Assembly: GCA_030429045.1 (NCBI GenBank)
Contig: JAUIEA010000006.1
Span: 3,879-67,878 of the forward strand
Source of the DNA: Bacteroidia bacterium
Lineage (GTDB): Bacteria > Bacteroidota > Bacteroidia > Chitinophagales > Saprospiraceae
DNA: 64,000 bases
Reading direction: 5' to 3'
Shown here piece by piece: positions 33,457-49,815 of this stretch. Each line of letters opens with the position of its first letter. The stretch's first letter is position 1. The notes under the pieces are model-generated. The model did not search any database. It was not told the DNA's origin and worked only from the letters and a program-made list of their open reading frames with translations. Both the position numbers and the translations under genes were made by a program.

Positions 33457-33459
33457 CTG

Positions 33460-34149
33460 ATGATGAGCTATTCCCCCGAGGCGAAACGGGACATCCTTGA
33501 TCGTACCCTGGAATTTGTGAAGACCTCACTGGCCCAGGCGGAAGGGGGGCATGACTGGTGGCATATCCAGCGCGTATGGACCAACGCCCGGCATATCGCC
33601 GAAGGTGAAGAAGTGGACTCGTTTGTTGTCGAGCTTGCAGCCTTGTTGCACGACATCGCCGATTCGAAATTCCATGGTGGTGACGAAGAAGTCGGTCCCC
33701 GGAAAGCCCGGCAGTTCCTGGAAAGCCTGGCCGTAGATGAACCCATTGTCGATCATGTGGTCCAGATCATTCGACATGTCTCCTTCAAGGGAGGGCATCA
33801 GGATGGCTCCTTCCATTCCGCCGAACTTGCCGTCGTCCAGGATGCGGATCGCCTGGATGCTCTCGGAGCCATCGGTATCGCCCGGGCATTCAATTATGGA
33901 GGGCACAAAGGCCGCGGGCTGTATGATCCCGCCATCTCTCCAAATCTGCATATGAGTGTGGAGGAGTATAAACACAGTACTGCTCCAACCATCAACCACT
34001 TCTATGAAAAGCTCCTCCTGCTGAAGGACCTGATGAATACAGAAACCGGGCGAAAGATGGCTGAAGAACGGCATCGATTTATGGAAGCCTATCTGGAGCA
34101 GTTTTACCACGAGTGGAATGGCACAGAAACAAGCCGTAAAGAAGCATGA
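33460..34149 (+). CDS. HD-domain phosphohydrolase (YedJ-like)
   Basis: 229 aa with the HD motif in AALLHDIADSKFH and a downstream DADRLDALGAIG motif. Confidence 0.8.
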   Translation: MMSYSPEAKRDILDRTLEFVKTSLAQAEGGHDWWHIQRVWTNARHIAEGEEVDSFVVELAALLHDIADSKFHGGDEEVGPRKARQFLESLAVDEPIVDHVVQIIRHVSFKGGHQDGSFHSAELAVVQDADRLDALGAIGIARAFNYGGHKGRGLYDPAISPNLHMSVEEYKHSTAPTINHFYEKLLLLKDLMNTETGRKMAEERHRFMEAYLEQFYHEWNGTETSRKEA

Positions 34150-34741: not shown

Positions 34742-36040
34742 TCACAAGATCCACCGCAACGCCAACCCTGCCCAGTCTCCCCGCCGAATGGCCCCCAGAC
34801 CGGACTGGGTAAAATAGCTGTTGACTTCAGCACCATCTCCGGCATAGCCCGGATCTCCCTGGCGGAAGGTATAGTGCAGCTGGACCACCGTTTTGGGATT
34901 GAACCACCAGTTGACGCCGACCTCAACATATGACTCCTGACCGGAAGGTTTGCCGATGGAGTCCGCCAGCAGCTGATCATTTTCACTCCGGCCTCCCGCC
35001 ATAAAAGCATAGGTCAGCGTAGGCTCTATAAACCCGAGATGGTCGACGGCGAGGTTATACCCGGCCCTCAAATGCCCGGTCCGGATGATATACTGTTTGA
35101 CCTCAAAGATGGGATCACCTGGAAATTCCACAGGATCCGTTCCCAGCCAGTGGATCTCCCCGTCCAGTTGAAATGGTCCGCGATTTACCAGAAGGTCGAC
35201 ACCAGAGGACCAGGAACGCCTGACCGGACCCAGGCCATTTGCCCGGGCACCACCGAGACCCAGGGATATTCCATTGCGCTTGCCAAAGGCATTGATCTTG
35301 TGTGATAGACTGTATTGCGGTGCCTCCGGGTCACCCCAGGTGCCCACCACTCGACCGACCAGGAGAACGGGCGGTTTCGTCTCCCCATTTCGATCAGGGC
35401 CAAAAAGTCCAGCATCCCATCGCAGCCAGGCCCGATCACTGCCCAACCGTAACTGACACCCCGCATTGATGCCTGGTGCTCTTCCCGGATTCCGATGCAC
35501 CAGATGTTCCCGCAGGTAATTCTGATCCATGGTCTTCTCAATACTATTCACAGCAAAACCGCTGGTGATGCTTTCCCGGCCATACTGAGGACGGAAATAA
35601 CCGACCGTGAGACGAGGGCCCTTTCCATCCCGACGAATTCCCCAGGTCACGTAAGCGTCAAGCAATCCGACCGATGGAAAGGAACCGTTGTTGGTTCCGC
35701 CAACTGTTCCGGAAGCTGGATTGTGGCCCACCTGATCGAATGCCAGTACGGTGGTGTAGGTCAGCCGGGGAAGGATCTCTCCTTTGACACCGATCCGGGC
35801 CCGGCGTAATTGCACGTTCCAGATATTGTAGGTTGGGGTATACCGCCCCGGCCAGGTGCCGCCATCAGAGTAACGGTCATGCTGGGGGGAATAGGTCCCC
35901 CACATCTGGAACATGGCGATGAATTCAGGCCTGGATGGTCTGTAGGTCCGCAGATCCACAAGGGAGTCCTGAGCAGACACCGGTTTGCCTGCTGTTATCA
36001 GCAGGAGGATAAACCCCACTTGAATCATTCTCATCATCAT
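34742..36040 (-). CDS. Outer-membrane porin (phosphate-selective porin O/P-like), last gene of the sulfur cluster
   Basis: 432 aa with signal peptide MMMRMIQVGFILLLITAGKPVSAQ. Has beta-strand periodicity and a C-terminal aromatic-rich end. The family call is tentative. Confidence 0.55.
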   Translation of the reverse strand: MMMRMIQVGFILLLITAGKPVSAQDSLVDLRTYRPSRPEFIAMFQMWGTYSPQHDRYSDGGTWPGRYTPTYNIWNVQLRRARIGVKGEILPRLTYTTVLAFDQVGHNPASGTVGGTNNGSFPSVGLLDAYVTWGIRRDGKGPRLTVGYFRPQYGRESITSGFAVNSIEKTMDQNYLREHLVHRNPGRAPGINAGCQLRLGSDRAWLRWDAGLFGPDRNGETKPPVLLVGRVVGTWGDPEAPQYSLSHKINAFGKRNGISLGLGGARANGLGPVRRSWSSGVDLLVNRGPFQLDGEIHWLGTDPVEFPGDPIFEVKQYIIRTGHLRAGYNLAVDHLGFIEPTLTYAFMAGGRSENDQLLADSIGKPSGQESYVEVGVNWWFNPKTVVQLHYTFRQGDPGYAGDGAEVNSYFTQSGLGAIRRGDWAGLALRWIL

Positions 36041-36105
36041 GACTGGCGATGAATGGTCACTTCAATCCACTAGAACAGAGGACGCTGGATATTCAATCAG
36101 TGTTT

Positions 36106-36519
36106 TTATTGTGGCAACTTGCTGGCCACAGCCCCATATGCCCAGGTACCCAGAAAGGCACCCAGGATAAAGATCAGCACGATCCAGAAGCCATTGCCGA
36201 GCAGGACCCACATCGGGCCCGGACAGGCCCCTGTGATCGCCCAGCCGATCCCGAAGATCGAACCGGCCAGGAGGTGGCGTTTGATACTCAGGGGCATGGG
36301 CGTGTAGTCGACCTCGGTACCTGCCCAGGTTCTCACCCGGGCACTTTTGAGGACATACATGGCGATGATGCCAGCTACTACTGCCACACCGATCACCCCA
36401 TACATATGGAATGCTTCAAAGCGAAACATCTCCGTGATCCGAAACCAGGAAATCACTTCCGATTTGGTCATAATGATCCCGAAAGGGATGCCGATCAGAA
36501 AAAAGGCCAGATTTTTCAT
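36106..36519 (-). CDS. YeeE/YedE-family sulfur-compound transporter, small half (DUF6691-like)
   Basis: 137 aa and four TM segments, with the GACPGP motif characteristic of the second half of YeeE/YedE transporters. Confidence 0.7.
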   Translation of the reverse strand: MKNLAFFLIGIPFGIIMTKSEVISWFRITEMFRFEAFHMYGVIGVAVVAGIIAMYVLKSARVRTWAGTEVDYTPMPLSIKRHLLAGSIFGIGWAITGACPGPMWVLLGNGFWIVLIFILGAFLGTWAYGAVASKLPQ

Positions 36520-36538
36520 CGTTCTGTGTCGTTTGGGA

Positions 36539-37123
36539 TTAGAGGATCAGGGGAAGGAGATAAGGCAGAACCAGCCAGGTCATGATCAATCCGCCGATAA
36601 AAAATCCGATCACTGTGATCAGGGAGGGAAGAGACAAATGGGACAGCCCGGTAATCGCATGGCCGGATGTACATCCTTCACCATAACGAGAGCCGAAGCC
36701 TACAAAAAAGCCACCGACCAGGGCCAGTACGACACCTTTCCAATTGGCAAAACTGAAGATCACGGTCGGCAGGAATCCAAGCCCGGTTTCGTCTGATTCC
36801 GGATAGGCGATTCCCAAACCACTCAAATAGTCGATGGTGGACGCCGATATGGCTACAGGTTCTGGGCTACGCAGATAGTGGACAGCGAGGATGGCACCTA
36901 GTACGCTCCCCGCGACAAAGGTCATCAGCCAGCGATTGTCCTTCGTATTGATGTCAAAATAGGGGATCTTCTTCCCGGCGCCTGCATATGCGCAGAGGAC
37001 TTTAAAACTGGAGGAGACGCCGAATTTTCGTCCCATGAGGGTCAACGCAACCGAGACTGCGGTGATCGCCAGGCCTCCTACAGCCCAATGCCAGGGTTGA
37101 CTGATCCATTCCAAAATTGTCAT
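36539..37123 (-). CDS. YeeE/YedE-family sulfur-compound transporter, large half
   Basis: Starts at MTILEWISQPWHW; the ORF-track frame opens at 37300. The GEGCTSGH motif is typical of the YeeE/YedE (sulphur transport) family. Confidence 0.75.
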   Translation of the reverse strand: MTILEWISQPWHWAVGGLAITAVSVALTLMGRKFGVSSSFKVLCAYAGAGKKIPYFDINTKDNRWLMTFVAGSVLGAILAVHYLRSPEPVAISASTIDYLSGLGIAYPESDETGLGFLPTVIFSFANWKGVVLALVGGFFVGFGSRYGEGCTSGHAITGLSHLSLPSLITVIGFFIGGLIMTWLVLPYLLPLIL

Positions 37124-37332
37124 TGATTCAAATTTAAACGCCCAGAAAAGATGATTCAGTTGAAAATCGAGAAGCAAAAGATACGGAAAGGCCGAGACTC
37201 CGATATCGATGCCCCTTGTACAGACGCAAAGAACCGACATTGCAAACGCCCTTCCCGTGATGTATATCACAAAAGAAGAGAGTTGACGAATCGCCGCCAA
37301 CTCCCTTCCGCTATGATCATCCGTAAGATGAA

Positions 37333-38742
37333 CTATAATTCAGTCTCCTGTTCTGTGAATTCGGTCCGTTGAATATTCGTTTCTGTCAATGCCGTAAACC
37401 CGCCTGGAATATTGACCACGTCGTGGATTCCCCTAGCTTTGAGAATGGACCCTGCAATGACGGAGCGGTAACCCGTAGCACAATAGAGGAAATACTTGTT
37501 TTCCGGCTTGAGCTCATTCATATTCCGATTGATAAAATCCAATGGAAAACTGGTTGCCCCGACCACATGTTCGGCTGCAAACTCACTGTACTTCCGCACA
37601 TCCAGCACCTTCATATTTTTTCCATCGAAAACGTTATCCAGTTCTTCCGGGGATAATTCTTCCATGGTGTCGATCTCTTCTCCTGCTTCCTGCCACGCGG
37701 CAAACCCGCCTTCCAGGAATCCGATCGGATGGTCATAGCCTACCCGGGCCAGGCGGACGACCACTTCGTCTTCACGACCGGGATCGGCCACAAAGAGAAT
37801 AGGCTGTTTCAGATCAGTGATCAATGCGCCGACCCAGGGTGCGAAACTGCCATCGACCCCGATAAATATGGACCCGGGAATAAAGCCTTTGACAAATTTC
37901 AGCTGGTCGCGGGTATCCAGTACCAGGGCATTCTCGCCTTCCCAGGCGGCTTTGAAGGCTCGAACGCTCAAGGGCTGTGAACCTCGCTGGCGAACCACAT
38001 CGATGGATTCGTAGCCCATTTTATTCATGACCGCATTCTTGGGGAAATACTGCGGCGGTTCCACCAGACCGGTAGTGACTTCCCGGACAAATTCTTCCCG
38101 GGTCATATCGGGCCGCAATGCGTAGTTGACCCGTTTCTGTTCACCGATGGTGCCCTGGGTCTCCTTGCTCATTTTCTTTCCACATGCTGATCCTGCGCCG
38201 TGGCCCGGATAGACGATCACATCATCCGCCAGGGGCATGATCTTGTTGCGCAAACTGTCGAACAGGTAACCTGCGAGATCCTCCCGGGTGAGGTCTGTCT
38301 TGATGGCCAGATCTGGTCTGCCGACATCCCCCAGGAAGAGGGTGTCGCCGGTAAATATAGCATGGTCCTTCCCCTTTTCATCACGGAGCAGGTAGGATGA
38401 ACTTTCCATGGTATGTCCGGGCGTGTGCAGGACAACAATGGAGATATCCCCCACTTTCAGGACTTCGCCATCCTTGGCGATATGGGCATTGAAATTGGGC
38501 TTGGCTGTCGGTCCGAACACGATGGTCGCACCGGTCTGTTTGGCCAGATCCAGATGCCCGGAAACAAAGTCTGCATGGAAGTGCGTTTCCAGAACGTATT
38601 TGATCTGAGCGCCATCCGCTTTCGCTCTTTCGAGGTAGGGTTCTGTTTCGCGCAGTGGGTCGATCACGATGGCTTCTCCCTTACTTTCAATATAATAGGC
38701 GGCTTCGGCCAGACATCCGGTATACAATTGTTCTACTTTCAT
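37333..38742 (-). CDS. Persulfide dioxygenase (MBL fold) - tandem rhodanese fusion (CstB/Blh-like), copy 1
   Basis: 469 aa. ETHFHADFVSGH is the HxHxDH metal site of the MBL/ETHE1-type fold. The C-terminal rhodanese active loop is YCATGYRS. Confidence 0.85.
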   Translation of the reverse strand: MKVEQLYTGCLAEAAYYIESKGEAIVIDPLRETEPYLERAKADGAQIKYVLETHFHADFVSGHLDLAKQTGATIVFGPTAKPNFNAHIAKDGEVLKVGDISIVVLHTPGHTMESSSYLLRDEKGKDHAIFTGDTLFLGDVGRPDLAIKTDLTREDLAGYLFDSLRNKIMPLADDVIVYPGHGAGSACGKKMSKETQGTIGEQKRVNYALRPDMTREEFVREVTTGLVEPPQYFPKNAVMNKMGYESIDVVRQRGSQPLSVRAFKAAWEGENALVLDTRDQLKFVKGFIPGSIFIGVDGSFAPWVGALITDLKQPILFVADPGREDEVVVRLARVGYDHPIGFLEGGFAAWQEAGEEIDTMEELSPEELDNVFDGKNMKVLDVRKYSEFAAEHVVGATSFPLDFINRNMNELKPENKYFLYCATGYRSVIAGSILKARGIHDVVNIPGGFTALTETNIQRTEFTEQETEL

Positions 38743-38809
38743 AAAGACTTGTTTTACACGAGGATTAATGGGACTGGAGGGCAGACCTCAGTCCAGTTGT
38801 TCACTAGTG

Positions 38810-38854
38810 TAAAAATACCCTGAAACGGACGCTCTGATTGTGACACCTGTCACG
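38810..38854 (-). promoter_or_regulatory. Internal promoter of the sulfur cluster: CRP-type palindrome (CGTGA-CAGGTG-TCACA on the minus strand), then 21 nt, then a -7 box (TATTTTTA)
   Basis: The palindrome is at 38839-38854, the 21-nt spacer at 38818-38838 and the -7-like box at 38810-38817. The ATG of PDO copy 1 is at 38742. The geometry is identical to the site at 46795-46839. Confidence 0.5.
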
Positions 38855-38871
38855 AAAAACTCTGATGCCGA

Positions 38872-40665
38872 TCAGTGATTCAGCAGCGGCGTGGTGGGGA
38901 TGTCGACGGCAGGTAGCCGGTCATCCTGCTGGCACTCCCAAAAGATACGGGCAGTGCAGGTTTCACAGATGGCCGGATCCAGTTTCTGGTAGATCGCGGC
39001 AAGGGCCAGTTTCTTGGTGGTAAAGAAATGGTCGGCTCCGATCTGATCCTTGAGGCCGGATTTCCAAAGCACATCCTGAGCCACAATCTTCAAACCAGTG
39101 ATATACAGATCGCCGCCGAGAGACCTCAACTTCTCTGCCTCATGATGGAGCCATTCTGCTCCGGCCAGGTCAACGAAATTAATCCCATCGGCCAGCAGGA
39201 GGATTCGATTGAACCCGTCCACCTTCAAGTCGCTGAAAAACCCTTCTATATGATCGATCGCACCATAAAACAGGGAGCCATCAATTCTGACCACTTTAAG
39301 CTGGGGGCATTCCCGAATATCCTCCACTCGTTCCGTGTTGATAAAGTGATGGCGCACATCTTTCTGGCTAGGGGCCATGATGGCGATATGGGGCTTGGAC
39401 GTACGGCGCAAATAGAAGAAAAGCGAAAGAAATATACCGATATAGATGGCGAACTCCAATTCAAAAAACAATGTGGCCAGAAAGGTGGCGATCAGCACGG
39501 TCGCTTCACTCCCACTTGCACGAATGACTTTTTTTATTTCTTTGAAATTAATCAGGTTGTATGCGACCACAAGGATCACACCTCCCATTGCCGCAATAGG
39601 CAGATACGCACTGAGCGGGGCCACAAATAAAACGATCAGGACAAGAAAGAGAGATGCCAGTATCGCCGCCATCGGGGTCTTTGCACCAGCATCATAATTC
39701 ACACCTGAACGGGTGAATGAACCACTCCCCGGATAGCTCGAAAAAAAACTGCCGATCATATAGGCCAGCCCCTGTCCTATGAATTCCTGATTGCTATCCA
39801 ATCGTTGCTGGGATCGAATGGCAATAGAACGACCAATGGCAGTGGCTTCGATCAATCCCAACAATGCAATCGCGAATCCGCTACTGCCCAATTTCGTAAT
39901 GTTCGCAAAGGTGAGATCGGGAACTGCAAATGGCGGTAAATGTGAAGGCATCCTCCCGACCAGGGTGATCCCCTTTTCCGTTGCGCCCAGAAAATAGGTG
40001 GCTACACTTGCCAGGATCATACCACTCAGGAATGGAGGCACTTTGGGTAGCCATCGCTTGAGCACCAGCGCTACGGTAACGGCGATCATAGCAATGAGAA
40101 AAATCCACGGATTGATCTGAGAAAAGTGGCTGAAAATATAGGTAACCGTCTCGTGGAAGGCCAGTCCGTTCGGCATTTTCAGACCCAAAACATGTTTGAG
40201 CTGACTGATGCCAATCAGGATGGCTGCACCGGCTGTAAATCCGATGACCACACTGCTCGAAACAAAATTCACAAGCGTCCCGAACCGGGCAAGCCCCATC
40301 ATCAACCGAAACGAACCGGCGATAAACGCCAGCACAATAGCCAGTTGGATGTACTGCTCCGAACCGGGCTCGGCATACACTGAAAGTGTCGCAAATACGA
40401 TCAGGGAGATCGTGGTGGTCGGACCCGAGATCAAATGCCAGGATGAACCGAATAGTGCAGCAATGATCGGTGGGATCATCGCGGTATATAAACCATAAAT
40501 GGGCGGGAGTCCCGCGATCATGGCAAAGGCAACACCTTGAGGCAATACTATTATTGCACCCGTCAATGCCGCCAGCATATCGGCCTTTACTGTCTTTTTG
40601 GTGACCATGGGCCACCACTGTAAAAAAGGAAAGATCTTTGGCCAAATGCCATCTGAACCATTCAT
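38872..40665 (-). CDS. SulP-family anion (sulfate) permease with C-terminal STAS domain
   Basis: 597 aa. The N-terminus has about 10-12 TM segments with LTGAIIVLPQGVAFAMIAGLPP (SulP signature region). A soluble C-terminal ~130 aa domain follows (VVRIDGSLFYGAIDHIE, STAS-like). Confidence 0.85.
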   Translation of the reverse strand: MNGSDGIWPKIFPFLQWWPMVTKKTVKADMLAALTGAIIVLPQGVAFAMIAGLPPIYGLYTAMIPPIIAALFGSSWHLISGPTTTISLIVFATLSVYAEPGSEQYIQLAIVLAFIAGSFRLMMGLARFGTLVNFVSSSVVIGFTAGAAILIGISQLKHVLGLKMPNGLAFHETVTYIFSHFSQINPWIFLIAMIAVTVALVLKRWLPKVPPFLSGMILASVATYFLGATEKGITLVGRMPSHLPPFAVPDLTFANITKLGSSGFAIALLGLIEATAIGRSIAIRSQQRLDSNQEFIGQGLAYMIGSFFSSYPGSGSFTRSGVNYDAGAKTPMAAILASLFLVLIVLFVAPLSAYLPIAAMGGVILVVAYNLINFKEIKKVIRASGSEATVLIATFLATLFFELEFAIYIGIFLSLFFYLRRTSKPHIAIMAPSQKDVRHHFINTERVEDIRECPQLKVVRIDGSLFYGAIDHIEGFFSDLKVDGFNRILLLADGINFVDLAGAEWLHHEAEKLRSLGGDLYITGLKIVAQDVLWKSGLKDQIGADHFFTTKKLALAAIYQKLDPAICETCTARIFWECQQDDRLPAVDIPTTPLLNH

Positions 40666-40683
40666 GCAGGAAGCACCATTGTT

Positions 40684-43578
40684 TTATTGACCAACGCCAT
40701 CTTTGAGTGATCCGTTTTCATTCATATTATCCAGGTAATACGTCTCATCTACCGGACGCAGGGCCCGCTTGAACCACAAGGGGCGTCGCAGCCCGCCTGG
40801 TCCGGGCGCCGGACGCGTCATCTTGAGCCACTCCCTGTAGATCTCCATCGACTTGTTGGTATCCACAAAGATATCACCATAGGCATCATCCGGTCCGGCC
40901 TTTTCGATCCGCACCCGCTGATGCCAGCAGTGCATTCCTGAAATGGGGTCCGGATGAACCGGGAAGGTAATATTCTGATGGACACCCCCGTCGCTCCAGA
41001 AGATCCGACTGGAATCATTGTCCTTGCTGTCAAAGGGCTTGACACCTGAAAGGGTCGACATCTTCCATCCGCCTTTTCCATCGTTCTTGATGGCGACCGT
41101 ATTGGTTGCCCAGCGGTTGCCGGTTTTGTCTTCCGGGCGTCTCCACCGTCCCAGGTGATGGGAGCAGGCCACCACACCAGGCTTCATTCCCTCTGTCACC
41201 CACACCTTGTCGACAAAATAGCCGATATCGGTATTCATCTTCACCAGGTCTCCTGTCTTCAGACCAAAGACCTTTGCATCCTGGGGATGCATCCAGATCG
41301 GATTGCGGTTGGATATCTCGTACAGCCACTTGGCATTGCCGGAGCGGGAGTGGATCAGGGTTGGCAATCTGAAGGTGGGGACCAGTACATATTCACCCTT
41401 GCTCTTGTCCAGGGTCTCATTGTGGATATGACTCTTGATATAGGTCGGCAGGGCGTATTCGGGCCATCCCCAGTCGATCATGGTTTTGGAGAAAAACTCA
41501 TTTTTCCGGGATGGGGTCGGAAAGCCTTCTACGGCTTTCCCATCGACCATGATGCCGATGGCTTTTCCACCTTTTTTCACGACCTGGGTCTTGGGATCCA
41601 CTTCGGAACCCACCAGGGCCTCCGGTTTTACTTCATTGAGATTCTGGTGGTAACAATGCGGTTCGATCTCGAATGCACCGAACTTCTTCATGTAATCCAG
41701 GGGATTCAACCCTTCCTTTTCTGCCGCTTCCGGCAGGCCGGGAACACGCTCGAAGATATACTGGTAGTATTCATCGATCGTGACCTTTTCGCCGGGTCGG
41801 TAGGGTGACAGGAAGTGCTCCCGGATGCCCAGGCTGCCATCGGGGTCGATGCGCCAGCTCAGTTCGATCCAGAATTCATCTTCCTCCCAGACTTCGCCGG
41901 GATTGGCTTCATAGGTGAAGGTCACCGGCTTGCCATTCCGCCGGGCTGCCTCGCGCAGGACCGGCTGACGAAAGGCGATCCATTTACCGGAATGCGTCTC
42001 GTAACTGTTGATATCATGCCGCTCACTGGCCAGCCCCATGGGCAGGACATAGTCGGCAAAAAATGCGGTCTCACTCCAGGTCGGCGTCAGGGCTGCATGA
42101 AGTCCGAATTTGGATTCATCGCTGAATGCCTCGATCCAGGAGAACCCGTCCGGATAGGTCCAGACCGGGTTGAACACCCGACTGAAATAGACATCCATCT
42201 TTCCTCTGCCTTCCTTCAGGAAGTGCGGCAGGAGGAAGCTCATTTCGAAGAATGCCAGCGGGTATTCGTTGGGGAAGTGCAGCTCGTTCCAGAACTTTTG
42301 TGCTGGAGGCTTGGCAAAAAAGGTAGGTTTGAATTTGTTCCACTCACTGGGCATTGTTCCCCCTTTCGTGCCGACACTACCGGTCAGAACATTGAGGAAA
42401 TGCAGGGTCCGCGCAACGGCCCATCCACCCAGGTTACCTGACCCGGCACTGCGCCAGTTGTGGGTGGCAAATTGCTCACCTGCCTCACCGATCAACCGGG
42501 CTGTCTCCCGGATCATTTCAGGCCGGACTCCACTTTCTTCATACGCGTACTCGGGGGTGTATTCGGCATAGGTTTCCTTCAGTTTTTCGATATAATTCTC
42601 GAAGGTGACCGGTGTGCCCGGATGCATGTGCTCCAGATATTCGTTCCAGTTGACCCATTGCTCCATATAAGCCCGATTGTACAGGCCTTCGTCCAGGATG
42701 ATCTTGGCCATGGCCAGCAGGACGGCAGCTTCAGAACCGGGATAGGACGGCATCCAGTAGTCACTCATGCTGGCGGTGTTGGACAGGCGCGGATCCATGG
42801 TGATCAGCTTGGCTCCTTTCATCTTGGCTTCGATGATCCGCTGAGCGTGCGGATTGAAGTAGTGGCCGCTTTCCAGGTGGGCGGAGATCAACAGGATGAC
42901 CTTGGCGTTGGTATGATCCGGACTGGGGCGATCATATCCGTACCAGATGGCATATCCGAATCGGGCGCCGGAGGAACAGATATTGGTATGACTGTTATGG
43001 CCGTCAATGTTCCAGGATTGGAGTATGCGGTCCATATACCCTTCATGCCCCGGGCGGCCCACATGGTAGGCGATCTCATTGTTCCGACCTTCCTGCAATG
43101 CCTTGCGAATACGTCCGGAAATATCATCCAGGACCTCATCCCAGGTCACGCGTTCCCAGTCGCCTGAGCCTCTCTTCCCCTTTCGCTTGAGGGGGTAGAG
43201 GATCCGGTCCGGATCCGTGATCTGATTGATGGTTGCGGGGCCTTTTGCACAGTTTCGTCCCCGGCTGGCCGGGTGGTAGGGGTTGCCTTCGAATTTGCGC
43301 ACCTCGCCGGTTTCCTTGTCGATAAAAGCGGTCAGACCACAGGCACTCTCGCAGTTGAAGCAAGTCGTGGGCACGATCTGGTAATGCTTCTTTTCCCGGC
43401 GTGGATGAGCCTTTGCCTCATATTCCACCCAGTCATCCCACTGTTCCGGAGGCGGAAAATTGGTCAGTTCGGTGGTTTGGGTCAAGTGTGGCAGGTCCAG
43501 CTCCCTGTCCTGATGCAGGTCGGGAATCAGGCCGATCTTTTCGGCCATCCGTTCAATGAATCCAGGTTTCTTAGTCAT
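40684..43578 (-). CDS. Molybdopterin (Mo/W-bisPGD) oxidoreductase catalytic subunit, no Tat signal (SoeA/PsrA-like)
   Basis: 964 aa. The N-terminal FeS motif CFNCESACGL...(~33 aa)...CAKG has the C-x2-C-x3-C-xn-C pattern. The length is typical of the DMSO reductase superfamily. The N-terminus MTKKPGFIERMAEKIG lacks a twin-arginine motif. Substrate specificity cannot be read from the sequence. Confidence 0.8.
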   Translation of the reverse strand: MTKKPGFIERMAEKIGLIPDLHQDRELDLPHLTQTTELTNFPPPEQWDDWVEYEAKAHPRREKKHYQIVPTTCFNCESACGLTAFIDKETGEVRKFEGNPYHPASRGRNCAKGPATINQITDPDRILYPLKRKGKRGSGDWERVTWDEVLDDISGRIRKALQEGRNNEIAYHVGRPGHEGYMDRILQSWNIDGHNSHTNICSSGARFGYAIWYGYDRPSPDHTNAKVILLISAHLESGHYFNPHAQRIIEAKMKGAKLITMDPRLSNTASMSDYWMPSYPGSEAAVLLAMAKIILDEGLYNRAYMEQWVNWNEYLEHMHPGTPVTFENYIEKLKETYAEYTPEYAYEESGVRPEMIRETARLIGEAGEQFATHNWRSAGSGNLGGWAVARTLHFLNVLTGSVGTKGGTMPSEWNKFKPTFFAKPPAQKFWNELHFPNEYPLAFFEMSFLLPHFLKEGRGKMDVYFSRVFNPVWTYPDGFSWIEAFSDESKFGLHAALTPTWSETAFFADYVLPMGLASERHDINSYETHSGKWIAFRQPVLREAARRNGKPVTFTYEANPGEVWEEDEFWIELSWRIDPDGSLGIREHFLSPYRPGEKVTIDEYYQYIFERVPGLPEAAEKEGLNPLDYMKKFGAFEIEPHCYHQNLNEVKPEALVGSEVDPKTQVVKKGGKAIGIMVDGKAVEGFPTPSRKNEFFSKTMIDWGWPEYALPTYIKSHIHNETLDKSKGEYVLVPTFRLPTLIHSRSGNAKWLYEISNRNPIWMHPQDAKVFGLKTGDLVKMNTDIGYFVDKVWVTEGMKPGVVACSHHLGRWRRPEDKTGNRWATNTVAIKNDGKGGWKMSTLSGVKPFDSKDNDSSRIFWSDGGVHQNITFPVHPDPISGMHCWHQRVRIEKAGPDDAYGDIFVDTNKSMEIYREWLKMTRPAPGPGGLRRPLWFKRALRPVDETYYLDNMNENGSLKDGVGQ

Positions 43579-43592
43579 AGCCTGATGTTCGT

Positions 43593-45215
43593 TTAGCTGA
43601 GTGGAATGCGCTGTGGCGCCTCGACCCAGATGTGTTCTGTGATATAAATGCCGGCCAAAACCAGAAGGGCGGCAATGACAAATCCGATGGTGGAACCACC
43701 GCCAAAATAGAGCAGGCCGAGGGGCAGGAGGTTTCCTAGCAGAACAGTGCCGATCCAGAACCGTTTCTGATAGCTGCCTTTCACGATCATGGTTACCACC
43801 CGATGGGTGTCATGGGTGGGATGGGGTGTGGCCAGTTCAGAGATCAGGACCACGATGTTCAGCCCGATGGCGATCATGAGGAAGGTCATCAGGAATTGGG
43901 TCCAGCCCGCTTCTGCACCGGTCACCAAATTGACCAATGCAAATATGGCGGCCCCGGCCATGAAGGCATGTACCAGCATGTGAATGGGCAAGGTGGGGCT
44001 CTGCCAGAAGTCTCGTCCTTTTGCCTGGGCAAAGAGGAAGGCCGTATAGACGGCAACCAGTACGGCGAATCCCGCCATCAGCCATTGTACCCAGGCTACT
44101 GTTTGTCCAAGATAGAGGAGCACCAGGGAGAGCGCCATCAATCCGCCGAAGAAGGTGATGGCATAGCCACCACGAGGTAGCCAGGATTTCCATTGTGGAC
44201 GCAGGAGCACGTAGACAAATCGCTTGGGTTGGTCCAGGTCCATGACCAGCAGTGCACCGGTAGCGGCCAGGAAGAACATCCCCAGTCCAAGACTCCAGTA
44301 TTGACCTGCCAGATTGGGGCCGCTCACACCCAGCAGCCATGCGATAAAGGGTACCAGGATGGCTCCCGTCGCAATGGCTTTTGTCCAGACATACCCGGAG
44401 ACTTCCCATCCCCAGAGAATGCCTTTATCCGGTGCATCGTACACACGTCTCGGCTTTTTACCGATCAGGAGATCCACAGAGCGGGCATTTCCATTCTGGG
44501 CTACCTCCTCAGCGGTGGTTTCCTGTCCGTTCACTTCCATGAGTGCGGAAACCACATCCGGGTTGGAGAAGGCCATCTGTTCTGCTGCCTTGGCAAAGTG
44601 GCCCACCCCGCCTTCCTGGCGGCTCCACATATAGTCTTGTTGCTTGTCGGTCAGGGATGGATTGAGCGAGGCATCATCGGCATCAATGTAAAACAGGTTG
44701 GGCACTGTTCCCTTTTCCGGTTTTCGCACCTTCACCTGTTGCCGGCCGAGCAGCTGGGAGATCTCGGATTCCGGGTTGTCCATATCGCCGGAAATGATCG
44801 CGTGTTCCGGGCATACATTGACACAAGCCGGTTCCAGACCGATATCAACGCGGTGGGCGCAATAATTACATTTTGCTGCGGTATGGGTTTCCGGATCGAT
44901 ATAGAGTGCATCGTAAGGGCAAGCCTGCATACAGGACTTGCAGGCGATACAACGGTCCTTGTCGAAATCGACGATTCCATCATCGCGAATGTACAGGGCT
45001 TCAACCGGGCAGATCTCCACACAGGGAGCATCCGTGCAATGATTGCATCGCATCACCGAGAACAAGCGGCGAACATGGGGAAACTCCCCCTTCTCCACCT
45101 GCTTGACCCAGGTCCGGTTCACGCCGACTGGTACATCGTGTTCGGATTTGCAGGCGGTGGTGCAGGCATGACAACCGATACACTTCCGATTGTCAATGAT
45201 AAAACCGTATTTCAT
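43593..45215 (-). CDS. Fused 4Fe-4S dicluster (four-cluster) electron-transfer subunit and NrfD/PsrC-like membrane quinone-interacting subunit
   Basis: Starts at MKYGFIIDNRKCIGCHACTTAC; the ORF-track frame opens at 45353. Four Cys clusters are present (CIGCHACTTAC, CNHCTDAPCVEIC, CIACKSCMQAC, CNYCAHR...CVNVC). About 300 aa with some 8 hydrophobic helices follow. Confidence 0.8.
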   Translation of the reverse strand: MKYGFIIDNRKCIGCHACTTACKSEHDVPVGVNRTWVKQVEKGEFPHVRRLFSVMRCNHCTDAPCVEICPVEALYIRDDGIVDFDKDRCIACKSCMQACPYDALYIDPETHTAAKCNYCAHRVDIGLEPACVNVCPEHAIISGDMDNPESEISQLLGRQQVKVRKPEKGTVPNLFYIDADDASLNPSLTDKQQDYMWSRQEGGVGHFAKAAEQMAFSNPDVVSALMEVNGQETTAEEVAQNGNARSVDLLIGKKPRRVYDAPDKGILWGWEVSGYVWTKAIATGAILVPFIAWLLGVSGPNLAGQYWSLGLGMFFLAATGALLVMDLDQPKRFVYVLLRPQWKSWLPRGGYAITFFGGLMALSLVLLYLGQTVAWVQWLMAGFAVLVAVYTAFLFAQAKGRDFWQSPTLPIHMLVHAFMAGAAIFALVNLVTGAEAGWTQFLMTFLMIAIGLNIVVLISELATPHPTHDTHRVVTMIVKGSYQKRFWIGTVLLGNLLPLGLLYFGGGSTIGFVIAALLVLAGIYITEHIWVEAPQRIPLS

Positions 45216-45243
45216 AGTGCAAGTTTTCTCCAACCAAATGGAA

Positions 45244-45270
45244 TTCCGGCCCCGTCTGTCGGGGCCGGAA
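45244..45270 (-). other. Intercistronic stem-loop between PDO copy 2 and the FeS/NrfD gene
   Basis: TTCCGGCCCC-GTCTGTC-GGGGCCGGAA, a perfect 10-bp stem. No clear T tract follows on the minus strand, so it is more likely a processing/stability element or attenuator than a full terminator. Confidence 0.4.
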
Positions 45271-45324
45271 GATCCAATCTCTCTTATCAATGCGCCTCCG
45301 GACTTTTCCGGCGGCGACCCTATA

Positions 45325-46743
45325 TTACTTGACCAGGGTGCTCGGACAGACATAGTCTGTCAACGGCAAGCCAGCGGGTGCAAAGTCGTCAAAATTACCG
45401 ATCACATTGATCAATTTGTCAAATCCACGGGCCTTCAGGATAGAAGCCGCAACCGTTGACCGATAGCCGGTACGGCAGTGCAGGTAATATTCCTGATCCC
45501 GTGAAATCTCTTCCATTTGCAGGTTGAGGAAATCCAGGGGCAGGGACTTCGCCTTGTCCAGATGTTCTCCAGTGAACTCTCCGGGTTTGCGCACATCCAG
45601 CACCTTTTCTGCTTTTCCTGCCTTCCAACGCTCCACAAAAGTCGGGGTGTCGATAGCTACAATGGTATCCACTTCCTTGCCAGCAGCCTTCCATGCAGGA
45701 AAGCCCCCCTTCAGGTAGCCGATCGCATTATCATAGCCCACCCGAGCCAGGCGCATGACGGTCTCCTCCTCGCGACCTTCCGGAGCGACGATGAGGATCT
45801 CCTGCTGGATATCCGGGACCAGGGCCCCGACCCAGGGAGCGAATCCACCGTCAATTCCGATAAAGATGGAGTTGGGAATGAAGCCTTCCACAAACTCGGT
45901 GTTCTCCCGAACATCCATGATCAGCGCACCGGTATCATTGGCCATCTGTTCAAACTCGTCCGGTGTCAGCGGATGAGCGCCTCGCTCCATGACCACATCG
46001 ATGCTTTCGTAGCCTTTTTTATTCAGAGCGGCATTCTTGGCAAAATACTGTGGAGGAGCCAGCAATCCGCTGGTGACTTCATGGATAAATTCCTCCTTGG
46101 TTATATCTGCACGAAGGGCGTAGTTGGTTCGCTTCTGGTTGCCGAGCGTATCCCAGGTTTCCGAGCTCATATTCTTCCCACAGGCTGAACCCGCGCCGTG
46201 CGCCGGATAGACGATCACATTGTCCGGCAAGGGCATGACCTTGTTGCGCAGGGAGTCAAACAGCCAACCGGCCAGATCCTCCTGGGTCAGTCCCGTCGCC
46301 TTCTGGGCGAGATCCGGGCGGCCCACGTCCCCGATGAACAGGGTATCTCCACTGAACAGGGCATTGGGCTTCCCATCCTCATCACGGAGGAGGTAGCAGG
46401 TCGACTCCGGGGTGTGGCCCGGTGTATGTAACACTTCAATGGTCACACGTCCGATCTGAAATCGTTCTCCATCGGTGGCTTCATGCATGTCAAACTCGGT
46501 CTTGGCTGTCGGACCATAAACGATCGTCGCTCCTGACTTGCGGGCCAGATCGATATGACCGGAGACGAAGTCCGCATGAAAGTGTGTTTCAAAAATATAC
46601 TTGATGGTCGCGTTGTCCTGATGGGCCCGCTCGATATAGGGCCCCGTCTCCCGGAGGGGGTCAATGATGGCGGCTTCCCCATTGCTTTCAATGTAATAGG
46701 CGCCCTGGGCCAGGCAACCGGTATAGATTTGTTCGATCTTCAT
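45325..46743 (-). CDS. Persulfide dioxygenase (MBL fold) - tandem rhodanese fusion, copy 2 (first gene of the sulfur cluster)
   Basis: Starts at MKIEQIYTGCLAQGAYYIE; the ORF-track frame opens at 46797. ETHFHADFVSGH is present and the rhodanese loop is HCRTGYRS. By eye it is about two-thirds identical to copy 1. Confidence 0.85.
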   Translation of the reverse strand: MKIEQIYTGCLAQGAYYIESNGEAAIIDPLRETGPYIERAHQDNATIKYIFETHFHADFVSGHIDLARKSGATIVYGPTAKTEFDMHEATDGERFQIGRVTIEVLHTPGHTPESTCYLLRDEDGKPNALFSGDTLFIGDVGRPDLAQKATGLTQEDLAGWLFDSLRNKVMPLPDNVIVYPAHGAGSACGKNMSSETWDTLGNQKRTNYALRADITKEEFIHEVTSGLLAPPQYFAKNAALNKKGYESIDVVMERGAHPLTPDEFEQMANDTGALIMDVRENTEFVEGFIPNSIFIGIDGGFAPWVGALVPDIQQEILIVAPEGREEETVMRLARVGYDNAIGYLKGGFPAWKAAGKEVDTIVAIDTPTFVERWKAGKAEKVLDVRKPGEFTGEHLDKAKSLPLDFLNLQMEEISRDQEYYLHCRTGYRSTVAASILKARGFDKLINVIGNFDDFAPAGLPLTDYVCPSTLVK

Positions 46744-46794: not shown

Positions 46795-46839
46795 CAAAGT
46801 TATGGATCACAAACAGAGGCTTTTGTGACATTCGTCACC
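46795..46839 (-). promoter_or_regulatory. Promoter of the sulfur cluster: CRP-type palindrome (GGTGA-CGAATG-TCACA on the minus strand), then 21 nt, then a -7 box (TAACTTTG)
   Basis: The palindrome is at 46824-46839, the 21-nt spacer at 46803-46823 and a perfect TAnnTTTG at 46795-46802. The ATG is at 46743. Confidence 0.55.
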
Positions 46840-47084
46840 CAGCTCAGGCAGGGTATCAAGATACGACTCTCTCCGCTTTCAGGTCCACCACCACCAGGAC
46901 AACCATTGAATTCCCTTCTGCAATAGAGGAATGGCCGGACCATCGCTGAACAGTGCTCACGAGCCGGTTGACCGATTTTGGTCCGGACGAGAATCATTCA
47001 CACTCCATTGACACTTCTCTGTGCCGAATCCTGGTAGTATTGTCTCCTCATTCCTCTTTTACAACCGGTAAAACCTTTTGACCC

Positions 47085-47603
47085 ATGACCACTGAAGAAA
47101 AACCAACAGGATGGAAAACCTTCCTCCTTCGACACAGTCTTACCCTGCTGTTTGCCCTCATCGCCGGCGGGATCTTCCTTTGGGGATGGCTTTCGATGCG
47201 GTCGATGCAAGCGGATTTTGATCAACGGCAAACCGAATTGATCGACAGTTTCCATCGTGAGGTGGATACCCTCCACCTGGAGGGAATGGAGCGGACCGCA
47301 AAGGTCCTTTCCTGGGCCATTCGGAGTGAAGTAAGCCGCAACAACCAGGAGCAGGTCAATCAATTCTTCCTGCAGTTCATCCGAGATGCACGGGTGAGCA
47401 AAGCGCAGTATGTCGATGCGGAGACGGGAGAGATCCTCATCTCCACAGATAAGAAGGATGAAGGGACCTCCCTCCTCAATTCCCTGCTCCTCAGAGCCGA
47501 AAAGCAGACAGCACAGCAGGATTCCCTGCACTGGCGCATCGCCACCCCGGTGATGGGCCTGAACCAGAAGTGGGGCGTCCTGATCGTCGAATCACCGCGC
47601 TAG
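47085..47603 (+). CDS. Hypothetical single-pass membrane protein (possible small extracytoplasmic sensor-like domain)
   Basis: 172 aa with one TM segment (LTLLFALIAGGIFLWGWL) followed by a ~130-aa soluble domain. No family recognised. Confidence 0.5.
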   Translation: MTTEEKPTGWKTFLLRHSLTLLFALIAGGIFLWGWLSMRSMQADFDQRQTELIDSFHREVDTLHLEGMERTAKVLSWAIRSEVSRNNQEQVNQFFLQFIRDARVSKAQYVDAETGEILISTDKKDEGTSLLNSLLLRAEKQTAQQDSLHWRIATPVMGLNQKWGVLIVESPR

Positions 47604-47655
47604 ATCAGCCTCGTACATCTTCGGGCAAACCTGAGGAGTTGGTTATCTTCACCCG

Positions 47656-49815
47656 ATGAGATCGCTGGTCATCCTGTTCTTTCTGCTGGCCCAACTGACT
47701 CCGGGTGTCGGTCAAAACCTTTTCCTGGACAGCCTGCTCCTGGAGTTGGACAAGCCTCTCCACGACACCACACGTGTGCTGACCCTGGCCGACGCGGCCT
47801 GGGAGCTCAAGTTCGACGACCCGGACAAGGCTCGTCATCTCTTGCAGGACGCCATCTGTCTCACCCAGAAGATCGGGTACCTGCGTGGGGAAGCCACCGC
47901 GTTCAACTATTTCGGAGTCCTGGAGACCATCCATGATCGATATGCCGATGCCATCCGGTATTACACCTATGCCCTTCCACTGCGTGAAGCACTGGGCGAC
48001 CGGAAAGGGATGGCCTCCATCTACAACAACCTCGGGAACATCTATGAAAACCAGGGTGAGGGCCTGGATGCCCTGGCCAACTTTCAGCTCTCCCTGAAGA
48101 TCATGGAACAGCTGGGTGATTCATCCCGGATCGCCAGGGCGACCTATAGTATGGCCGTGATCCATGAATCTTTGGGCAACTATCCGGAAGCCCTCAATCA
48201 TCTGTATGATTTTCTTGGCTATGTCGAATCGCAGGATGACAAGGAAGAGATCGCGGCGGGGTACAACCTGATCGGTAATATCAAATCCGAGATCGAACTG
48301 ACCGAGGAGGCCATGACCTGGTATCACAAGGCCCGGATCATCCGGGAGCAACTGGATGATATCTGGTCGCTGGCCATTACCTATCAGAACCTGGGGATCA
48401 CGGAGGACAACCTCGGCGAGCAGTTTCAGGACAAGGACCAGGGCGATTCAGCCATCGTCCATCACCTCCTGGCCCTGGAATGGCTGGACAAGGCCTATGC
48501 CATCTATACTCAGAATGACGATCCGAGCGGGCGAGCAGATATCCTCAATAATCGGGGGGTAGTGGAGAAAAACCTGGGGTCATCCTATTTGCTGAACGGA
48601 GATCGCAAAGCAGCAGAGCAGGCCTGGATCCAGGCCCTGGAGCATCTGGCCGCCTCCCGGGCGATCCGGGAGGAGCTGGGCGATCAGGTAGGGGTGATCG
48701 AAACCCTGAACGGATTGGGGGATGTGGCACGTCGGCAGGGACGATATCGCGATGCATTGAACTATACCAATGCCTATTTCGACCTGGCCACGGCCATCAA
48801 CAACAGCAAGTACATCCGGAATGGCTGGAAGGACCGGGCCCGGGTGTACAAGGCGTTGGGCAGATGGAAAGAAGCTTTCCACAGTCATGAGCAGTATGAG
48901 GAGTTACGCTGGGAGGAATTCAATGACAAGCGGGTCAAGGACTACGAGCGACGGGAAGTGCTGTACGGCGACCTGAAAAAGCAGATCAAGCTGGAAAAGC
49001 AGGAACAGGAGCTCGCATTGCAGGATGCCCGGCTGAGTGAGGCACGCACCCGGCAACGCGCTTTGATGGGCGGCGGACTGGCCCTGGCACTGCTTGCCCT
49101 GTTGTTGTACAATCGCTATCGGATCAAGAATAAGGCGAACAAGGACCTGGCTGAAAAGAATGTCATCATCGATGCCGAACGAAAGAAGTCGGACGACCTT
49201 CTCCTGAATATTCTGCCGGCGACCACCGCCCGCGAATTGAAGGAGACCGGGCGAGCCCGGGCCCGGCATTATGATTCTGTGACTGTCCTGTTTACAGATT
49301 TTTCCGGGTTTACGGCTACGGCAGCAAAGCTTGCACCGGCGGACCTCGTCGAAGAGCTGGACACCTGTTTTCGGGCCTTTGATGCCATTACGGCCCGGCA
49401 CGGGATCGAAAAGATCAAAACGATCGGGGATGCATATCTGTGTGTAGCTGGTCTGCCAGAGGAGCGGGAGCATCACGCCCTGGACGTGGTTCGTGCGGCC
49501 ATGGAGATGCAGGAATGGATGGAGGCGCGAGTCATCGAACTGGAAGGGCAAGGACGTCCATTCTTCCGCATGCGGGCGGGGATCCATACCGGTCCGGTCG
49601 TGGCCGGTGTCGTTGGCGATCGGAAGTTTGCCTATGATATCTGGGGGGATACGGTCAACACCGCAGCCCGGATGGAGAGCAACAGTGAACCGGGGCGGAT
49701 CAATCTGTCCGCTGTGACCTGGGCCCTGGTCAGGGAAGAGATACCCTGCACCCCAAGGGGAGCCATTGAAGCCAAGGGCAAGGGGAAACTGGAAATGTAC
49801 TTTGTGGAAAAATGA
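47656..49815 (+). CDS. TPR-repeat membrane-anchored class III adenylate/guanylate cyclase
   Basis: 719 aa. The order is signal or TM segment, about 8 TPR-like repeats (IYNNLGNIYENQGEGLDAL, TYQNLGITEDNLGE), a coiled coil, a TM segment (LALALLALLLYNRY) and then a cyclase domain (VTVLFTDFSGFTA, IKTIGDAYLCVAG, YDIWGDTVNTAARMES). Confidence 0.85.
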   Translation: MRSLVILFFLLAQLTPGVGQNLFLDSLLLELDKPLHDTTRVLTLADAAWELKFDDPDKARHLLQDAICLTQKIGYLRGEATAFNYFGVLETIHDRYADAIRYYTYALPLREALGDRKGMASIYNNLGNIYENQGEGLDALANFQLSLKIMEQLGDSSRIARATYSMAVIHESLGNYPEALNHLYDFLGYVESQDDKEEIAAGYNLIGNIKSEIELTEEAMTWYHKARIIREQLDDIWSLAITYQNLGITEDNLGEQFQDKDQGDSAIVHHLLALEWLDKAYAIYTQNDDPSGRADILNNRGVVEKNLGSSYLLNGDRKAAEQAWIQALEHLAASRAIREELGDQVGVIETLNGLGDVARRQGRYRDALNYTNAYFDLATAINNSKYIRNGWKDRARVYKALGRWKEAFHSHEQYEELRWEEFNDKRVKDYERREVLYGDLKKQIKLEKQEQELALQDARLSEARTRQRALMGGGLALALLALLLYNRYRIKNKANKDLAEKNVIIDAERKKSDDLLLNILPATTARELKETGRARARHYDSVTVLFTDFSGFTATAAKLAPADLVEELDTCFRAFDAITARHGIEKIKTIGDAYLCVAGLPEEREHHALDVVRAAMEMQEWMEARVIELEGQGRPFFRMRAGIHTGPVVAGVVGDRKFAYDIWGDTVNTAARMESNSEPGRINLSAVTWALVREEIPCTPRGAIEAKGKGKLEMYFVEK

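Follow-up and report, generated by a model that had tools for sequence, protein, structure and literature searches.

The closest described counterpart of the locus examined here is the polysulfide reductase-like complex 3 (PSRLC3) of green sulfur bacteria. The locus is a cluster of eight minus-strand genes for persulfide dioxygenase (PDO)-rhodanese fusions, a membrane-anchored molybdoenzyme, anion transporters and a porin, and it lies in a 64-kb stretch of Saprospiraceae DNA from contig JAUIEA010000006.1 (hereafter the window, meaning the whole 64,000 nucleotides analysed). Green sulfur bacteria have been described as having "2 genes encoding PSRLC3" (PMC5473276), and the complex has been inferred to be a sulfite-oxidising system (PMC9324843; PMC6338057). 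A second point of reference is the three-subunit enzyme SoeABC, genes of whose type are "universally present" in purple and green sulfur bacteria according to the abstract of Dahl (2013), as quoted in PMC8232776. The cst operon of Staphylococcus aureus (CstR, CstA, CstB, sulfide:quinone oxidoreductase [SQR] and TauE) offers a third comparison, and the reductases TtrBCA, PhsABC and PsrABC share with the enzyme of the window the complex iron-sulfur molybdoenzyme (CISM) architecture.

Comparison with these systems led us to conclude that the cluster is real, widespread and made of known parts. What it adds is the breadth of the molybdoenzyme family in aerobic heterotrophs, together with a candidate operator and regulator. 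The best reading of the cluster, and one that we consider probable, is a route from persulfide through sulfite to sulfate with delivery of electrons to quinone. All eight open reading frames (ORFs) listed in the initial annotation are present, each with the domains named there, as judged from the ORF list, Pfam and NCBIfam:

45325..46743, minus strand: PDO-rhodanese fusion copy 2 (PDO2), 472 aa; Lactamase_B (2e-18) and two Rhodanese stretches, motif HFHADF, loop HCRTGYRS.
43593..45215, minus strand: fused electron-transfer/membrane-anchor subunit (FeS/NrfD), 540 aa; Fer4_11 (2e-23) and NrfD (1e-19).
40684..43578, minus strand: catalytic molybdenum-bis(pyranopterin guanine dinucleotide) (Mo-bisPGD) subunit, 964 aa; Molybdop_Fe4S4, Molybdopterin and Molydop_binding.
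38872..40665, minus strand: SulP-STAS anion transporter, 597 aa or ~578 aa; Sulfate_transp (4e-92), TIGR00815 at 377 bits (cutoff 380).
37333..38742, minus strand: PDO-rhodanese fusion copy 1 (PDO1), 469 aa; Lactamase_B and two Rhodanese, loop YCATGYRS.
36539..37123, minus strand: YeeE/YedE N-terminal half (YeeE_N), 194 aa; Sulf_transp, motif GEGCTSGH, PmpA/TsuA-like.
36106..36519, minus strand: YeeE/YedE C-terminal half, 137 aa; DUF6691/Sulf_transp, motif TGACPG.
34742..36040, minus strand: Porin_O_P outer-membrane anion porin, 432 aa, with signal peptide; Porin_O_P (1e-9).

The intergenic gaps, in gene order from PDO2 to the porin, are 109, 14, 18, 129, 209, 19 and 65 bp; the first of these, between PDO2 and FeS/NrfD, measures 10-27 bp in relatives. 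The best protein match (95% identical) lies in a Saprospiraceae metagenome-assembled genome (the sister MAG), whose contig L093 is colinear with the window at 77-81% identity and whose gene calls include proteins of 472, 540, 964, 469 and 137 aa. Homologues and these gene calls both support the shorter starts of PDO2, FeS/NrfD and YeeE_N. A possible 46-aa extension of FeS/NrfD from the ATG at 45353 does not resemble a twin-arginine translocation (Tat) leader and is unused by gene callers in the sister MAG. A start of YeeE_N at TTG 37300 was ruled out because a terminator-like hairpin and one of the shared palindromes, both described below, sit within that extension. The SulP protein possibly starts 19 codons downstream (~578 rather than 597 aa), as the sister-MAG protein has 578 aa.

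That the genes do not form a chance grouping is indicated by the adjacency of the FeS/NrfD and Mo genes in ~71 of 84 related loci and by the recurrence of PDO-rhodanese, SulP and YeeE-half genes beside this pair in Bacteroidota. The arrangement had been thought unusual, a view that did not survive a genome scan with one genome per GTDB species: the best 80 loci listed, with 61-79% identity to the Mo subunit, come from more than 12 phyla and all belong to this two-gene family, with ~40 of them in Bacteroidota. Judged by its architecture and by 69-70% identity to the Chlorobium proteins, the enzyme of the window is a member of the PSRLC3 group. This identification was made because the Chlorobium pair is the only two-gene, Tat-less Psr-like complex and is adjacent to dsr, and not via a sequence labelled PSRLC3. 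In both settings a fused FeS/NrfD gene is followed by one for a Tat-less Mo subunit. The host here is an aerobic heterotrophic member of the Saprospiraceae, whereas green sulfur bacteria are anaerobic phototrophs. Likewise, the putative source of sulfite here is the O2-dependent PDO-rhodanese and there reverse Dsr, SulP takes the place of TauE, and a candidate Crp/Fnr-type operator is found here.

The fused subunit consists of an N-terminal 4x[4Fe-4S] ferredoxin domain with four Cys motifs, followed by an 8-helix NrfD/PsrC-type quinone-binding domain. Its eight transmembrane helices are joined by loops that carry 12 Lys and Arg residues on the FeS side and none on the opposite side. By the positive-inside rule this distribution places the FeS domain and its Mo partner in the cytoplasm, and both termini of the subunit are predicted to be cytoplasmic. 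The catalytic subunit has the FS0 motif C73-x2-C76-x3-C80...C110, and its Cys201 (in HTNICSS) aligns in HMMER alignments with the Mo-ligand Cys of ArrA (6cz7) and PsrA (2vpw), making Cys201 the predicted Mo ligand. The absence of a twin-arginine leader, which the initial annotation had asserted, was upheld: no possible start codon lies between the upstream in-frame stop and the start of the Mo ORF, and the N-terminus of the subunit (MTKKPGFIERMAEKIGLIPDL...) contains no RR motif, which excludes a Tat leader from any corrected start. As neither protein of the pair has a signal, an integral membrane enzyme could hardly face anywhere but the cytoplasm.

In these respects the enzyme resembles SoeABC, which has a Tat-less, cytoplasm-facing Mo-bisPGD subunit of similar size (~109 kDa) with FS0, a four-cluster FeS subunit and an inverted NrfD-type anchor of eight helices (PMC8076601), and which is likewise tied to systems generating cytoplasmic sulfite. 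The earlier description of the enzyme as Soe-like and cytoplasm-facing therefore stands as regards the lack of a Tat leader and the placement of the FeS domain inside. It does not hold for gene organisation, as SoeABC consists of three separate subunits in the order A-B-C, whereas here B and C are fused (540 aa) and the order is BC-A. We note that this comparison with SoeABC is one of architecture and context.

The N-terminus of the Mo subunit carries a conserved Tat-less segment, (K)P-x-x-IE-x-x-AEK-x-G-L-I (window 43480-43578, minus strand), common to the window, Lewinella, Chlorobium and Natrinema proteins. The motif PPxEQWDDW that comes after it is also found, behind the Tat signal, in the nearest exported relatives. 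By analogy with NarG, the segment and motif look like a vestigial leader or a chaperone-binding site.

Identity to the Mo subunit among its best 120 homologues is 77-80% across Saprospirales and up to 95% in the sister MAG. More distant members include a protein of the Thermomicrobium roseum megaplasmid (61%), one of Rhodococcus jostii pRHL3 (58%) and haloarchaeal plasmid proteins (54-57%). The best 80 loci include Bacteroidota (Saprospiraceae, Flavobacteriaceae, Cyclobacteriaceae), Chlorobiaceae, Planctomycetota, Acidobacteriota, Chloroflexota, Binatia, Marinimicrobia, Calditrichota, Spirochaetia, Rokubacteria and a euryarchaeote, and the fused FeS/NrfD gene lies directly upstream of the Mo gene in nearly every locus with enough upstream sequence. 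The nearest full-length relatives outside the family are 34-49% identical and Tat-bearing (among the best 150 50%-cluster representatives).

A neighbour-joining tree of Mo subunits (777 columns, 100 bootstraps) grouped the Tat-less proteins, those of the window, Lewinella and Chlorobium among them, in a clade with 95% bootstrap support, nested within a 97% clade that includes Tat-bearing relatives; the N-terminus of the Chlorobium sp. N1 Mo subunit is also without RR. The 97% clade adjoins a PhsA/TtrA/Psr-like group, with DmsA outside and NapA and FdnG most distant. The catalytic subunit was thus found beside Phs/Ttr/Psr-like enzymes and away from Dms, Nap and Fdn, and not firmly within a non-sulfur clade. 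It scored below every NCBIfam cutoff (DmsA/YnfE 192 bits against 778, PhsA 176 against 694, Fdh-alpha 148 against 666, ArrA 116 against 1600, TtrA 112 against 1750), and there was no Soe model among the NCBIfam matches of the Mo enzyme. For the FeS/NrfD subunit the best NCBIfam match was TtrB, at 201 bits (cutoff 416).

Other candidates for membership or for a name were set aside. The Azoarcus and Sulfurovum plasmid homologues (32-39% identity) occur in B-C-A clusters with TorD chaperones and hence represent a different, exported system. A plasmid tblastn search yielded no soeABC, the Phaeobacter match being an unrelated 1142-aa protein. The CT0494 complex, presumably PSRLC1, has three unfused subunits. 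The name FqoABC (Calisto and Pereira), for which CT0494 is the model gene, was rejected for the family on this ground.

The strongest argument for the substrate comes from the genes that surround the pair in other genomes. In Chlorobium sp. N1 (L047) the order is FeS/NrfD, Mo, TauE/SafE, DsrE2, Rhd, TusA, DsrN, DsrC, DsrA, DsrB, so that the pair abuts TauE, dsrE2-rhd-tusA and dsrNCAB, and other Chlorobiaceae loci have the same arrangement. R. jostii pRHL3 (L003) has the order DsrE, TusA, FeS/NrfD, Mo, Mrp, flanked by three metallo-beta-lactamase (MBL)/PDO genes, ArsR-type regulators and thioredoxin, and in T. roseum a CsoR/CstR-like regulator is encoded directly upstream of the pair. A PDO gene lies within 8 kb of the pair in 18 of the 40 Bacteroidota loci and in eight others, and PDO genes also stand beside it in Actinomycetota, Ktedonobacterales, Terriglobia, Neomarinimicrobiota and a euryarchaeote. 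The partners in Bacteroidota are PDO-rhodanese (the 18 loci), SulP right after the Mo gene, a second SulP, single-domain rhodaneses, YeeE halves and thioredoxin; an SQR-like flavoprotein joins the cluster in nine Bacteroidota loci, and Flavobacteriaceae loci add genes for molybdenum cofactor biosynthesis (moaC/D/E, moeB and mobA-like). As cytoplasmic sulfite is the common denominator of reverse Dsr and PDO, this comparison points to sulfite as the likely substrate. The persulfide-sulfite-sulfate logic of the initial annotation is therefore supported in silico, since the same enzyme abuts dsr in Chlorobium and PDO genes in Bacteroidota and the other lineages just named.

A gene for an Mrp/NBP35 Fe-S carrier lies directly after the Mo gene, and overlaps it, in R. 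jostii pRHL3 (L003) and Natrinema (L004), and is absent in Bacteroidota. Its product may be a dedicated maturation factor.

The two PDO copies are paralogues, 61% identical to one another, and both have the CstB-type layout of an MBL-fold PDO domain followed by two rhodanese domains with the catalytic Cys in the last. The HFHADF/TPGHT metal motifs and the catalytic Cys loop of the C-terminal rhodanese are kept in both. For PDO1 the best Protein Data Bank matches were 3TP9 (2e-76) and 3R2U (6e-51), the latter of which we take to be S. aureus CstB, and both of which are full-length MBL plus rhodanese proteins. The match of the two PDO-rhodanese copies to these CstB-like structures extends over their whole length. 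Orthologues of PDO2 (65-73% identical) are encoded just upstream of the FeS/NrfD gene in Saprospiraceae. The likeness to the cst operon extends to the clusters of relatives, which also hold SQR, a dedicated regulator and anion transporters. The differences are that cst ends at thiosulfate/sulfite and export whereas a quinone-linked molybdoenzyme is added here, that the regulator candidate is of the Crp/Fnr type and not the CsoR type, and that two PDO paralogues are present.

SulP orthologues (53-59% identical) are encoded directly after the Mo gene in Saprospiraceae, Flavobacteriaceae and Cyclobacteriaceae, and in Chlorobium a TauE/SafE gene occupies this position; we propose SulP as a candidate sulfate (or sulfite) exporter. 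Both YeeE halves score above the Pfam Sulf_transp cutoff and have conserved Cys motifs, as in YeeE/YedE (TsuA) and PmpAB. They differ from these in being split between two genes (194 and 137 aa) and in reaching only 34 bits with the TsuA model (cutoff 400). Orthologues of YeeE_N that are 44-59% identical occur in L007, L012, L016 and L028. The porin had been assigned the role of an outer-membrane conduit. In its favour, a 37% identical homologue occupies the same position in one other Saprospiraceae locus (L012). Against it, the gene corresponds to an exact 1.3-kb indel (window 34811-36106) relative to the sister MAG, which does not have it, and because the gene is exactly absent from the closest genome a role for the porin in the system is plausible but weak. 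Alignment to the sister MAG persists over the last ~69 bp of the porin ORF, suggesting loss there rather than gain here.

The cluster had also been treated as a single collinear unit. This view was not borne out, as the region contains hairpins and three copies of a palindrome, GTGAY-N4-RTCAC (pattern GTGAYNNNNRTCAC):

46825..46838, no strand assigned: palindrome GTGACATTCGTCAC, 82-95 bp upstream of the PDO2 ATG, in a 341-bp divergent intergenic region; candidate Crp/Fnr-type operator.
45244..45270, minus strand: GC-rich hairpin, 11 bp stem with 9 GC pairs and a weak T-tail, in the 109-bp gap between PDO2 and FeS/NrfD.
38840..38853, no strand assigned: palindrome GTGACACCTGTCAC, 98-111 bp upstream of the PDO1 ATG.
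37274..37309, minus strand: terminator-like hairpin, 16-bp stem followed by UUUU, just past PDO1; -33.9 kcal/mol, z = -7.4.
37257..37270, no strand assigned: palindrome GTGATGTATATCAC, 134-147 bp upstream of the YeeE_N ATG.

The three copies compare with 0.31 expected in 64 kb, no shuffle reached three, and they occur solely upstream of PDO2, PDO1 and yeeE_N, at distances of 82-147 bp. The gap that holds the GC-rich hairpin folds at -46.2 kcal/mol (z = -3.8), and this hairpin might serve for partial termination or for mRNA stability. Because of the hairpins and the three palindrome copies, the sequence features indicate not one operon but a small regulon, with three or more transcription units that share one operator. 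The 5-4-5 geometry with a GTGA-N6-TCAC core is that of CRP/FNR sites, and a Rex-like box is similar in geometry. In 14 Bacteroidota loci the same motif precedes a gene for PDO, SQR, FeS/NrfD, SulP, a rhodanese, thioredoxin or a mobA-like protein at a distance of 54-120 bp, and we regard the candidate operator as new, having previously gone unnoticed.

A protein of the Crp/Fnr family (cNMP_binding plus HTH_Crp_2) is encoded within the cluster in five relatives (L012, L015, L016, L024 and L028). It has two invariant Cys residues in the cNMP-binding barrel (motif G-x-x-C-x5-C) and its gene adjoins an SQR-like gene preceded by the palindrome. Judging from these cysteines, the protein could be a thiol-based sensor. 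No Crp-, CsoR-, ArsR- or SQR-like gene was found in the 64-kb window; the remark in the initial annotation that neither SQR/flavocytochrome c nor a CstR/BigR-type regulator is present is thus correct for SQR and for CstR/BigR-type regulators. A literature search found no link between Crp/Fnr regulators and PDO plus SQR. In Lewinella sp. LCG006 (L001, 3873-6358) genes for cytochrome bd oxidase lie divergently beside the PDO/FeS-NrfD/Mo cluster and the palindrome stands in the region between them, an arrangement that fits with sulfide-resistant respiration in the same response.

Divergent from the sulfur cluster, window 47085-49815 (plus strand) encodes a 172-aa single-transmembrane-helix protein and a 719-aa TPR/class III adenylate/guanylate cyclase, both kept in the sister MAG. 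These neighbours were considered as a cAMP link to the Crp-like box and rejected, as among the related loci their homologues are near the cluster only in the sister MAG. A 177-aa minus-strand ORF at 46998-47531 is more likely a shadow of the plus-strand gene for the 172-aa protein, which is the one picked by gene calling in the sister MAG. A sigma-70 promoter scan was uninformative (10 sites, compared with 10.9 in shuffled sequence), the model being unsuited to Bacteroidota promoters, and an Rfam search returned nothing in the window.

We propose that the region is a regulon by which sulfane sulfur would be oxidised to sulfate in the cytoplasm. In the first step, as suggested by their family, the two CstB-like PDO-rhodaneses would oxidise low-molecular-weight persulfides to sulfite with O2, their rhodanese domains interconverting persulfide, sulfite and thiosulfate. 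The second step, for which anatomy and comparative context argue, would be the oxidation of cytoplasmic sulfite to sulfate by the PSRLC3/Soe-like enzyme at its Cys-ligated Mo-bisPGD. Electrons would pass via FS0 and the four [4Fe-4S] clusters to menaquinone in the 8-helix NrfD domain, so that sulfite detoxification would feed the respiratory chain. In the third step SulP-STAS would export the anion product, the split YeeE/YedE would move thiosulfate- or polysulfide-type anions and the porin, when present, would do likewise across the outer membrane; if this transport were inward, the whole set would amount to a thiosulfate/persulfide-to-sulfate route. Finally, the units share the GTGAY-N4-RTCAC motif, which would probably be bound by a Crp/Fnr-family regulator encoded elsewhere in this genome.

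Several points weigh against this route. To our knowledge PSRLC3 has never been biochemically characterised, and we know of no enzymology for any fused family member. SoeA sequences (A. vinosum D3RNN8/ADC63403, R. pomeroyi SPO3559 and A. aeolicus aq_1234) were absent from the best 120 homologues, the best 150 representatives, the best 80 loci and the plasmid matches. The deep node that unites the clade with Phs/Ttr has a bootstrap value of only 45%, and the gene order FeS-NrfD-Mo and the best match of the FeS domain recall TtrBCA rather than SoeABC. The window has neither an SQR nor a regulator gene, and many loci in Acidobacteriota, Planctomycetota and Binatia are without a sulfur gene within 8 kb of the pair. 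Anchors of the SoeC type were found only in Proteobacteria, Aquificae and a few Clostridia in a survey of NrfD proteins (PMC8076601), a range compatible with two sister or analogous lineages of complementary distribution. Lastly, deletion of soeABC in R. pomeroyi is reported in a preprint to impair the oxidation of thiosulfate severely and that of sulfite only slightly.

It is feasible, if unlikely, that the molybdoenzyme instead works as a quinol-oxidising reductase of polysulfide, thiosulfate or tetrathionate on the cytoplasmic side, regenerating sulfide or thiosulfate instead of producing sulfate. The Mo ligand is a Cys in such enzymes as well, ArrA and PsrA are the closest solved or curated relatives, PhsA and TtrB are among the best NCBIfam matches, the gene order B-C-A is that of ttrBCA, and the Soe enzyme of A. 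aeolicus was itself first described as a sulfur reductase. However, all NCBIfam scores fall far under the family cutoffs, and the clade, although a neighbour of PhsA and TtrA in the tree, is separate from them. All Psr, Phs and Ttr enzymes known to us are Tat-exported, and TtrBCA, PhsABC and PsrABC are periplasmic reductases of separate subunits, whereas this enzyme is cytoplasmic. Most of its carriers live aerobically, O2-dependent PDOs or oxidative Dsr, both of them sulfite-producing, recur as conserved neighbours, and the anion exporters SulP and TauE come after the Mo gene. We disfavour a reductase on three grounds: the enzyme faces the cytoplasm, its hosts are aerobic and its partners O2-dependent or oxidative, and an anion exporter is encoded after it.

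Thiosulfate or another partly oxidised sulfur anion would be the substrate if the cluster served mainly for thiosulfate use, with import by the porin and YeeE, cleavage by rhodanese, and then PDO and the Mo enzyme. The presence of YeeE/TsuA-family proteins and an anion porin in the cluster fits such a scheme, as does the R. pomeroyi phenotype mentioned above, and CstB-type enzymes reportedly make thiosulfate. We nonetheless hold it to be quite improbable: YeeE and the porin are not constant partners, the porin being absent in the sister genome and YeeE present in few loci, the Chlorobium partner is Dsr with sulfite as its product, and we know of no Mo-bisPGD enzyme that oxidises thiosulfate. 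That the genes are merely neighbours and the substrate of the molybdoenzyme is a compound without sulfur, for instance formate, is very improbable indeed, for although NCBI labels one homologue "formate dehydrogenase", JGI labels others "anaerobic selenocysteine-containing dehydrogenase" and about half of the non-Bacteroidota loci are without a nearby sulfur gene, such names are generic COG transfers, the Fdh-alpha score is far from its cutoff, FdnG and NapA are the most distant branches, the linkage to sulfur genes arises independently in at least six phyla, and one operator is common to PDO2, PDO1 and yeeE and in relatives also stands ahead of the FeS/NrfD gene.

The route from persulfide through sulfite to sulfate thus being preferred, a wider and much more tentative proposal may be added. 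The palindrome might be the operator of the ~216-aa Crp/Fnr-family regulator found within the cluster in related Saprospiraceae and Flavobacteriaceae, representing a new thiol-based (per)sulfide- or sulfite-responsive class that rules a Bacteroidota-wide SQR/PDO/PSRLC3-type regulon. By extension, the aerobic heterotrophs of more than 12 phyla, Actinomycetota, Chloroflexota and haloarchaea among them, might rely on the fused enzyme as their main sulfite:quinone oxidoreductase, and the range of this enzyme appears to complement that of proteobacterial SoeABC. This is a speculation that we would not expect to hold in full.

A large share of sulfide oxidation in oxic and suboxic habitats is now ascribed to heterotrophs that possess SQR and PDO, and the disposal of the resulting sulfite has often been left open. 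Surveys that use proteobacterial SoeABC models can miss the fused form. If the PSRLC3-type enzyme is a sulfite:quinone oxidoreductase, sulfite would be a source of energy for abundant Bacteroidota, namely the Saprospiraceae of wastewater and algal surfaces and the Flavobacteriaceae of the sea, inventories of sulfur-cycle genes would need this family added, and the long-standing but putative PSRLC3 assignment would become approachable in easily grown aerobes such as Lewinella, Flavilitoribacter, Lutibacter and Gaetbulibacter. We know of no sulfide-responsive regulator in Bacteroidota, and the conserved operator offers a concrete handle on regulation in this phylum.

Elsewhere in the window, positions 2335-16739 and 24136-27420 hold seven large genes in which caspase-like Peptidase_C14 or CHAT domains are fused to TPR, MORN or DUF4384, a striking local concentration of the metacaspase type. 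ARAGORN called a tRNA-Met at 24635-24715 (minus strand), inside the MORN-caspase ORF 24136-25815, where Rfam gave no tRNA at gathering score; the call is probably a false positive. Relative to contig L093 of the sister MAG, the window has extra segments not only at the porin (34811-36106) but also at 28438-30269 and 32759-33537, and one extra segment holds a gene for a DUF5122 beta-propeller protein with a type IX secretion system tail (28344-30125). A dip in GC content at 52001-54000 (0.37, compared with ~0.53 elsewhere) falls in a 978-aa ORF (51010-53946, minus strand) with Receptor-L, DUF11 and DUF7619 domains, which could encode a low-complexity, repeat-rich surface protein or represent foreign DNA.

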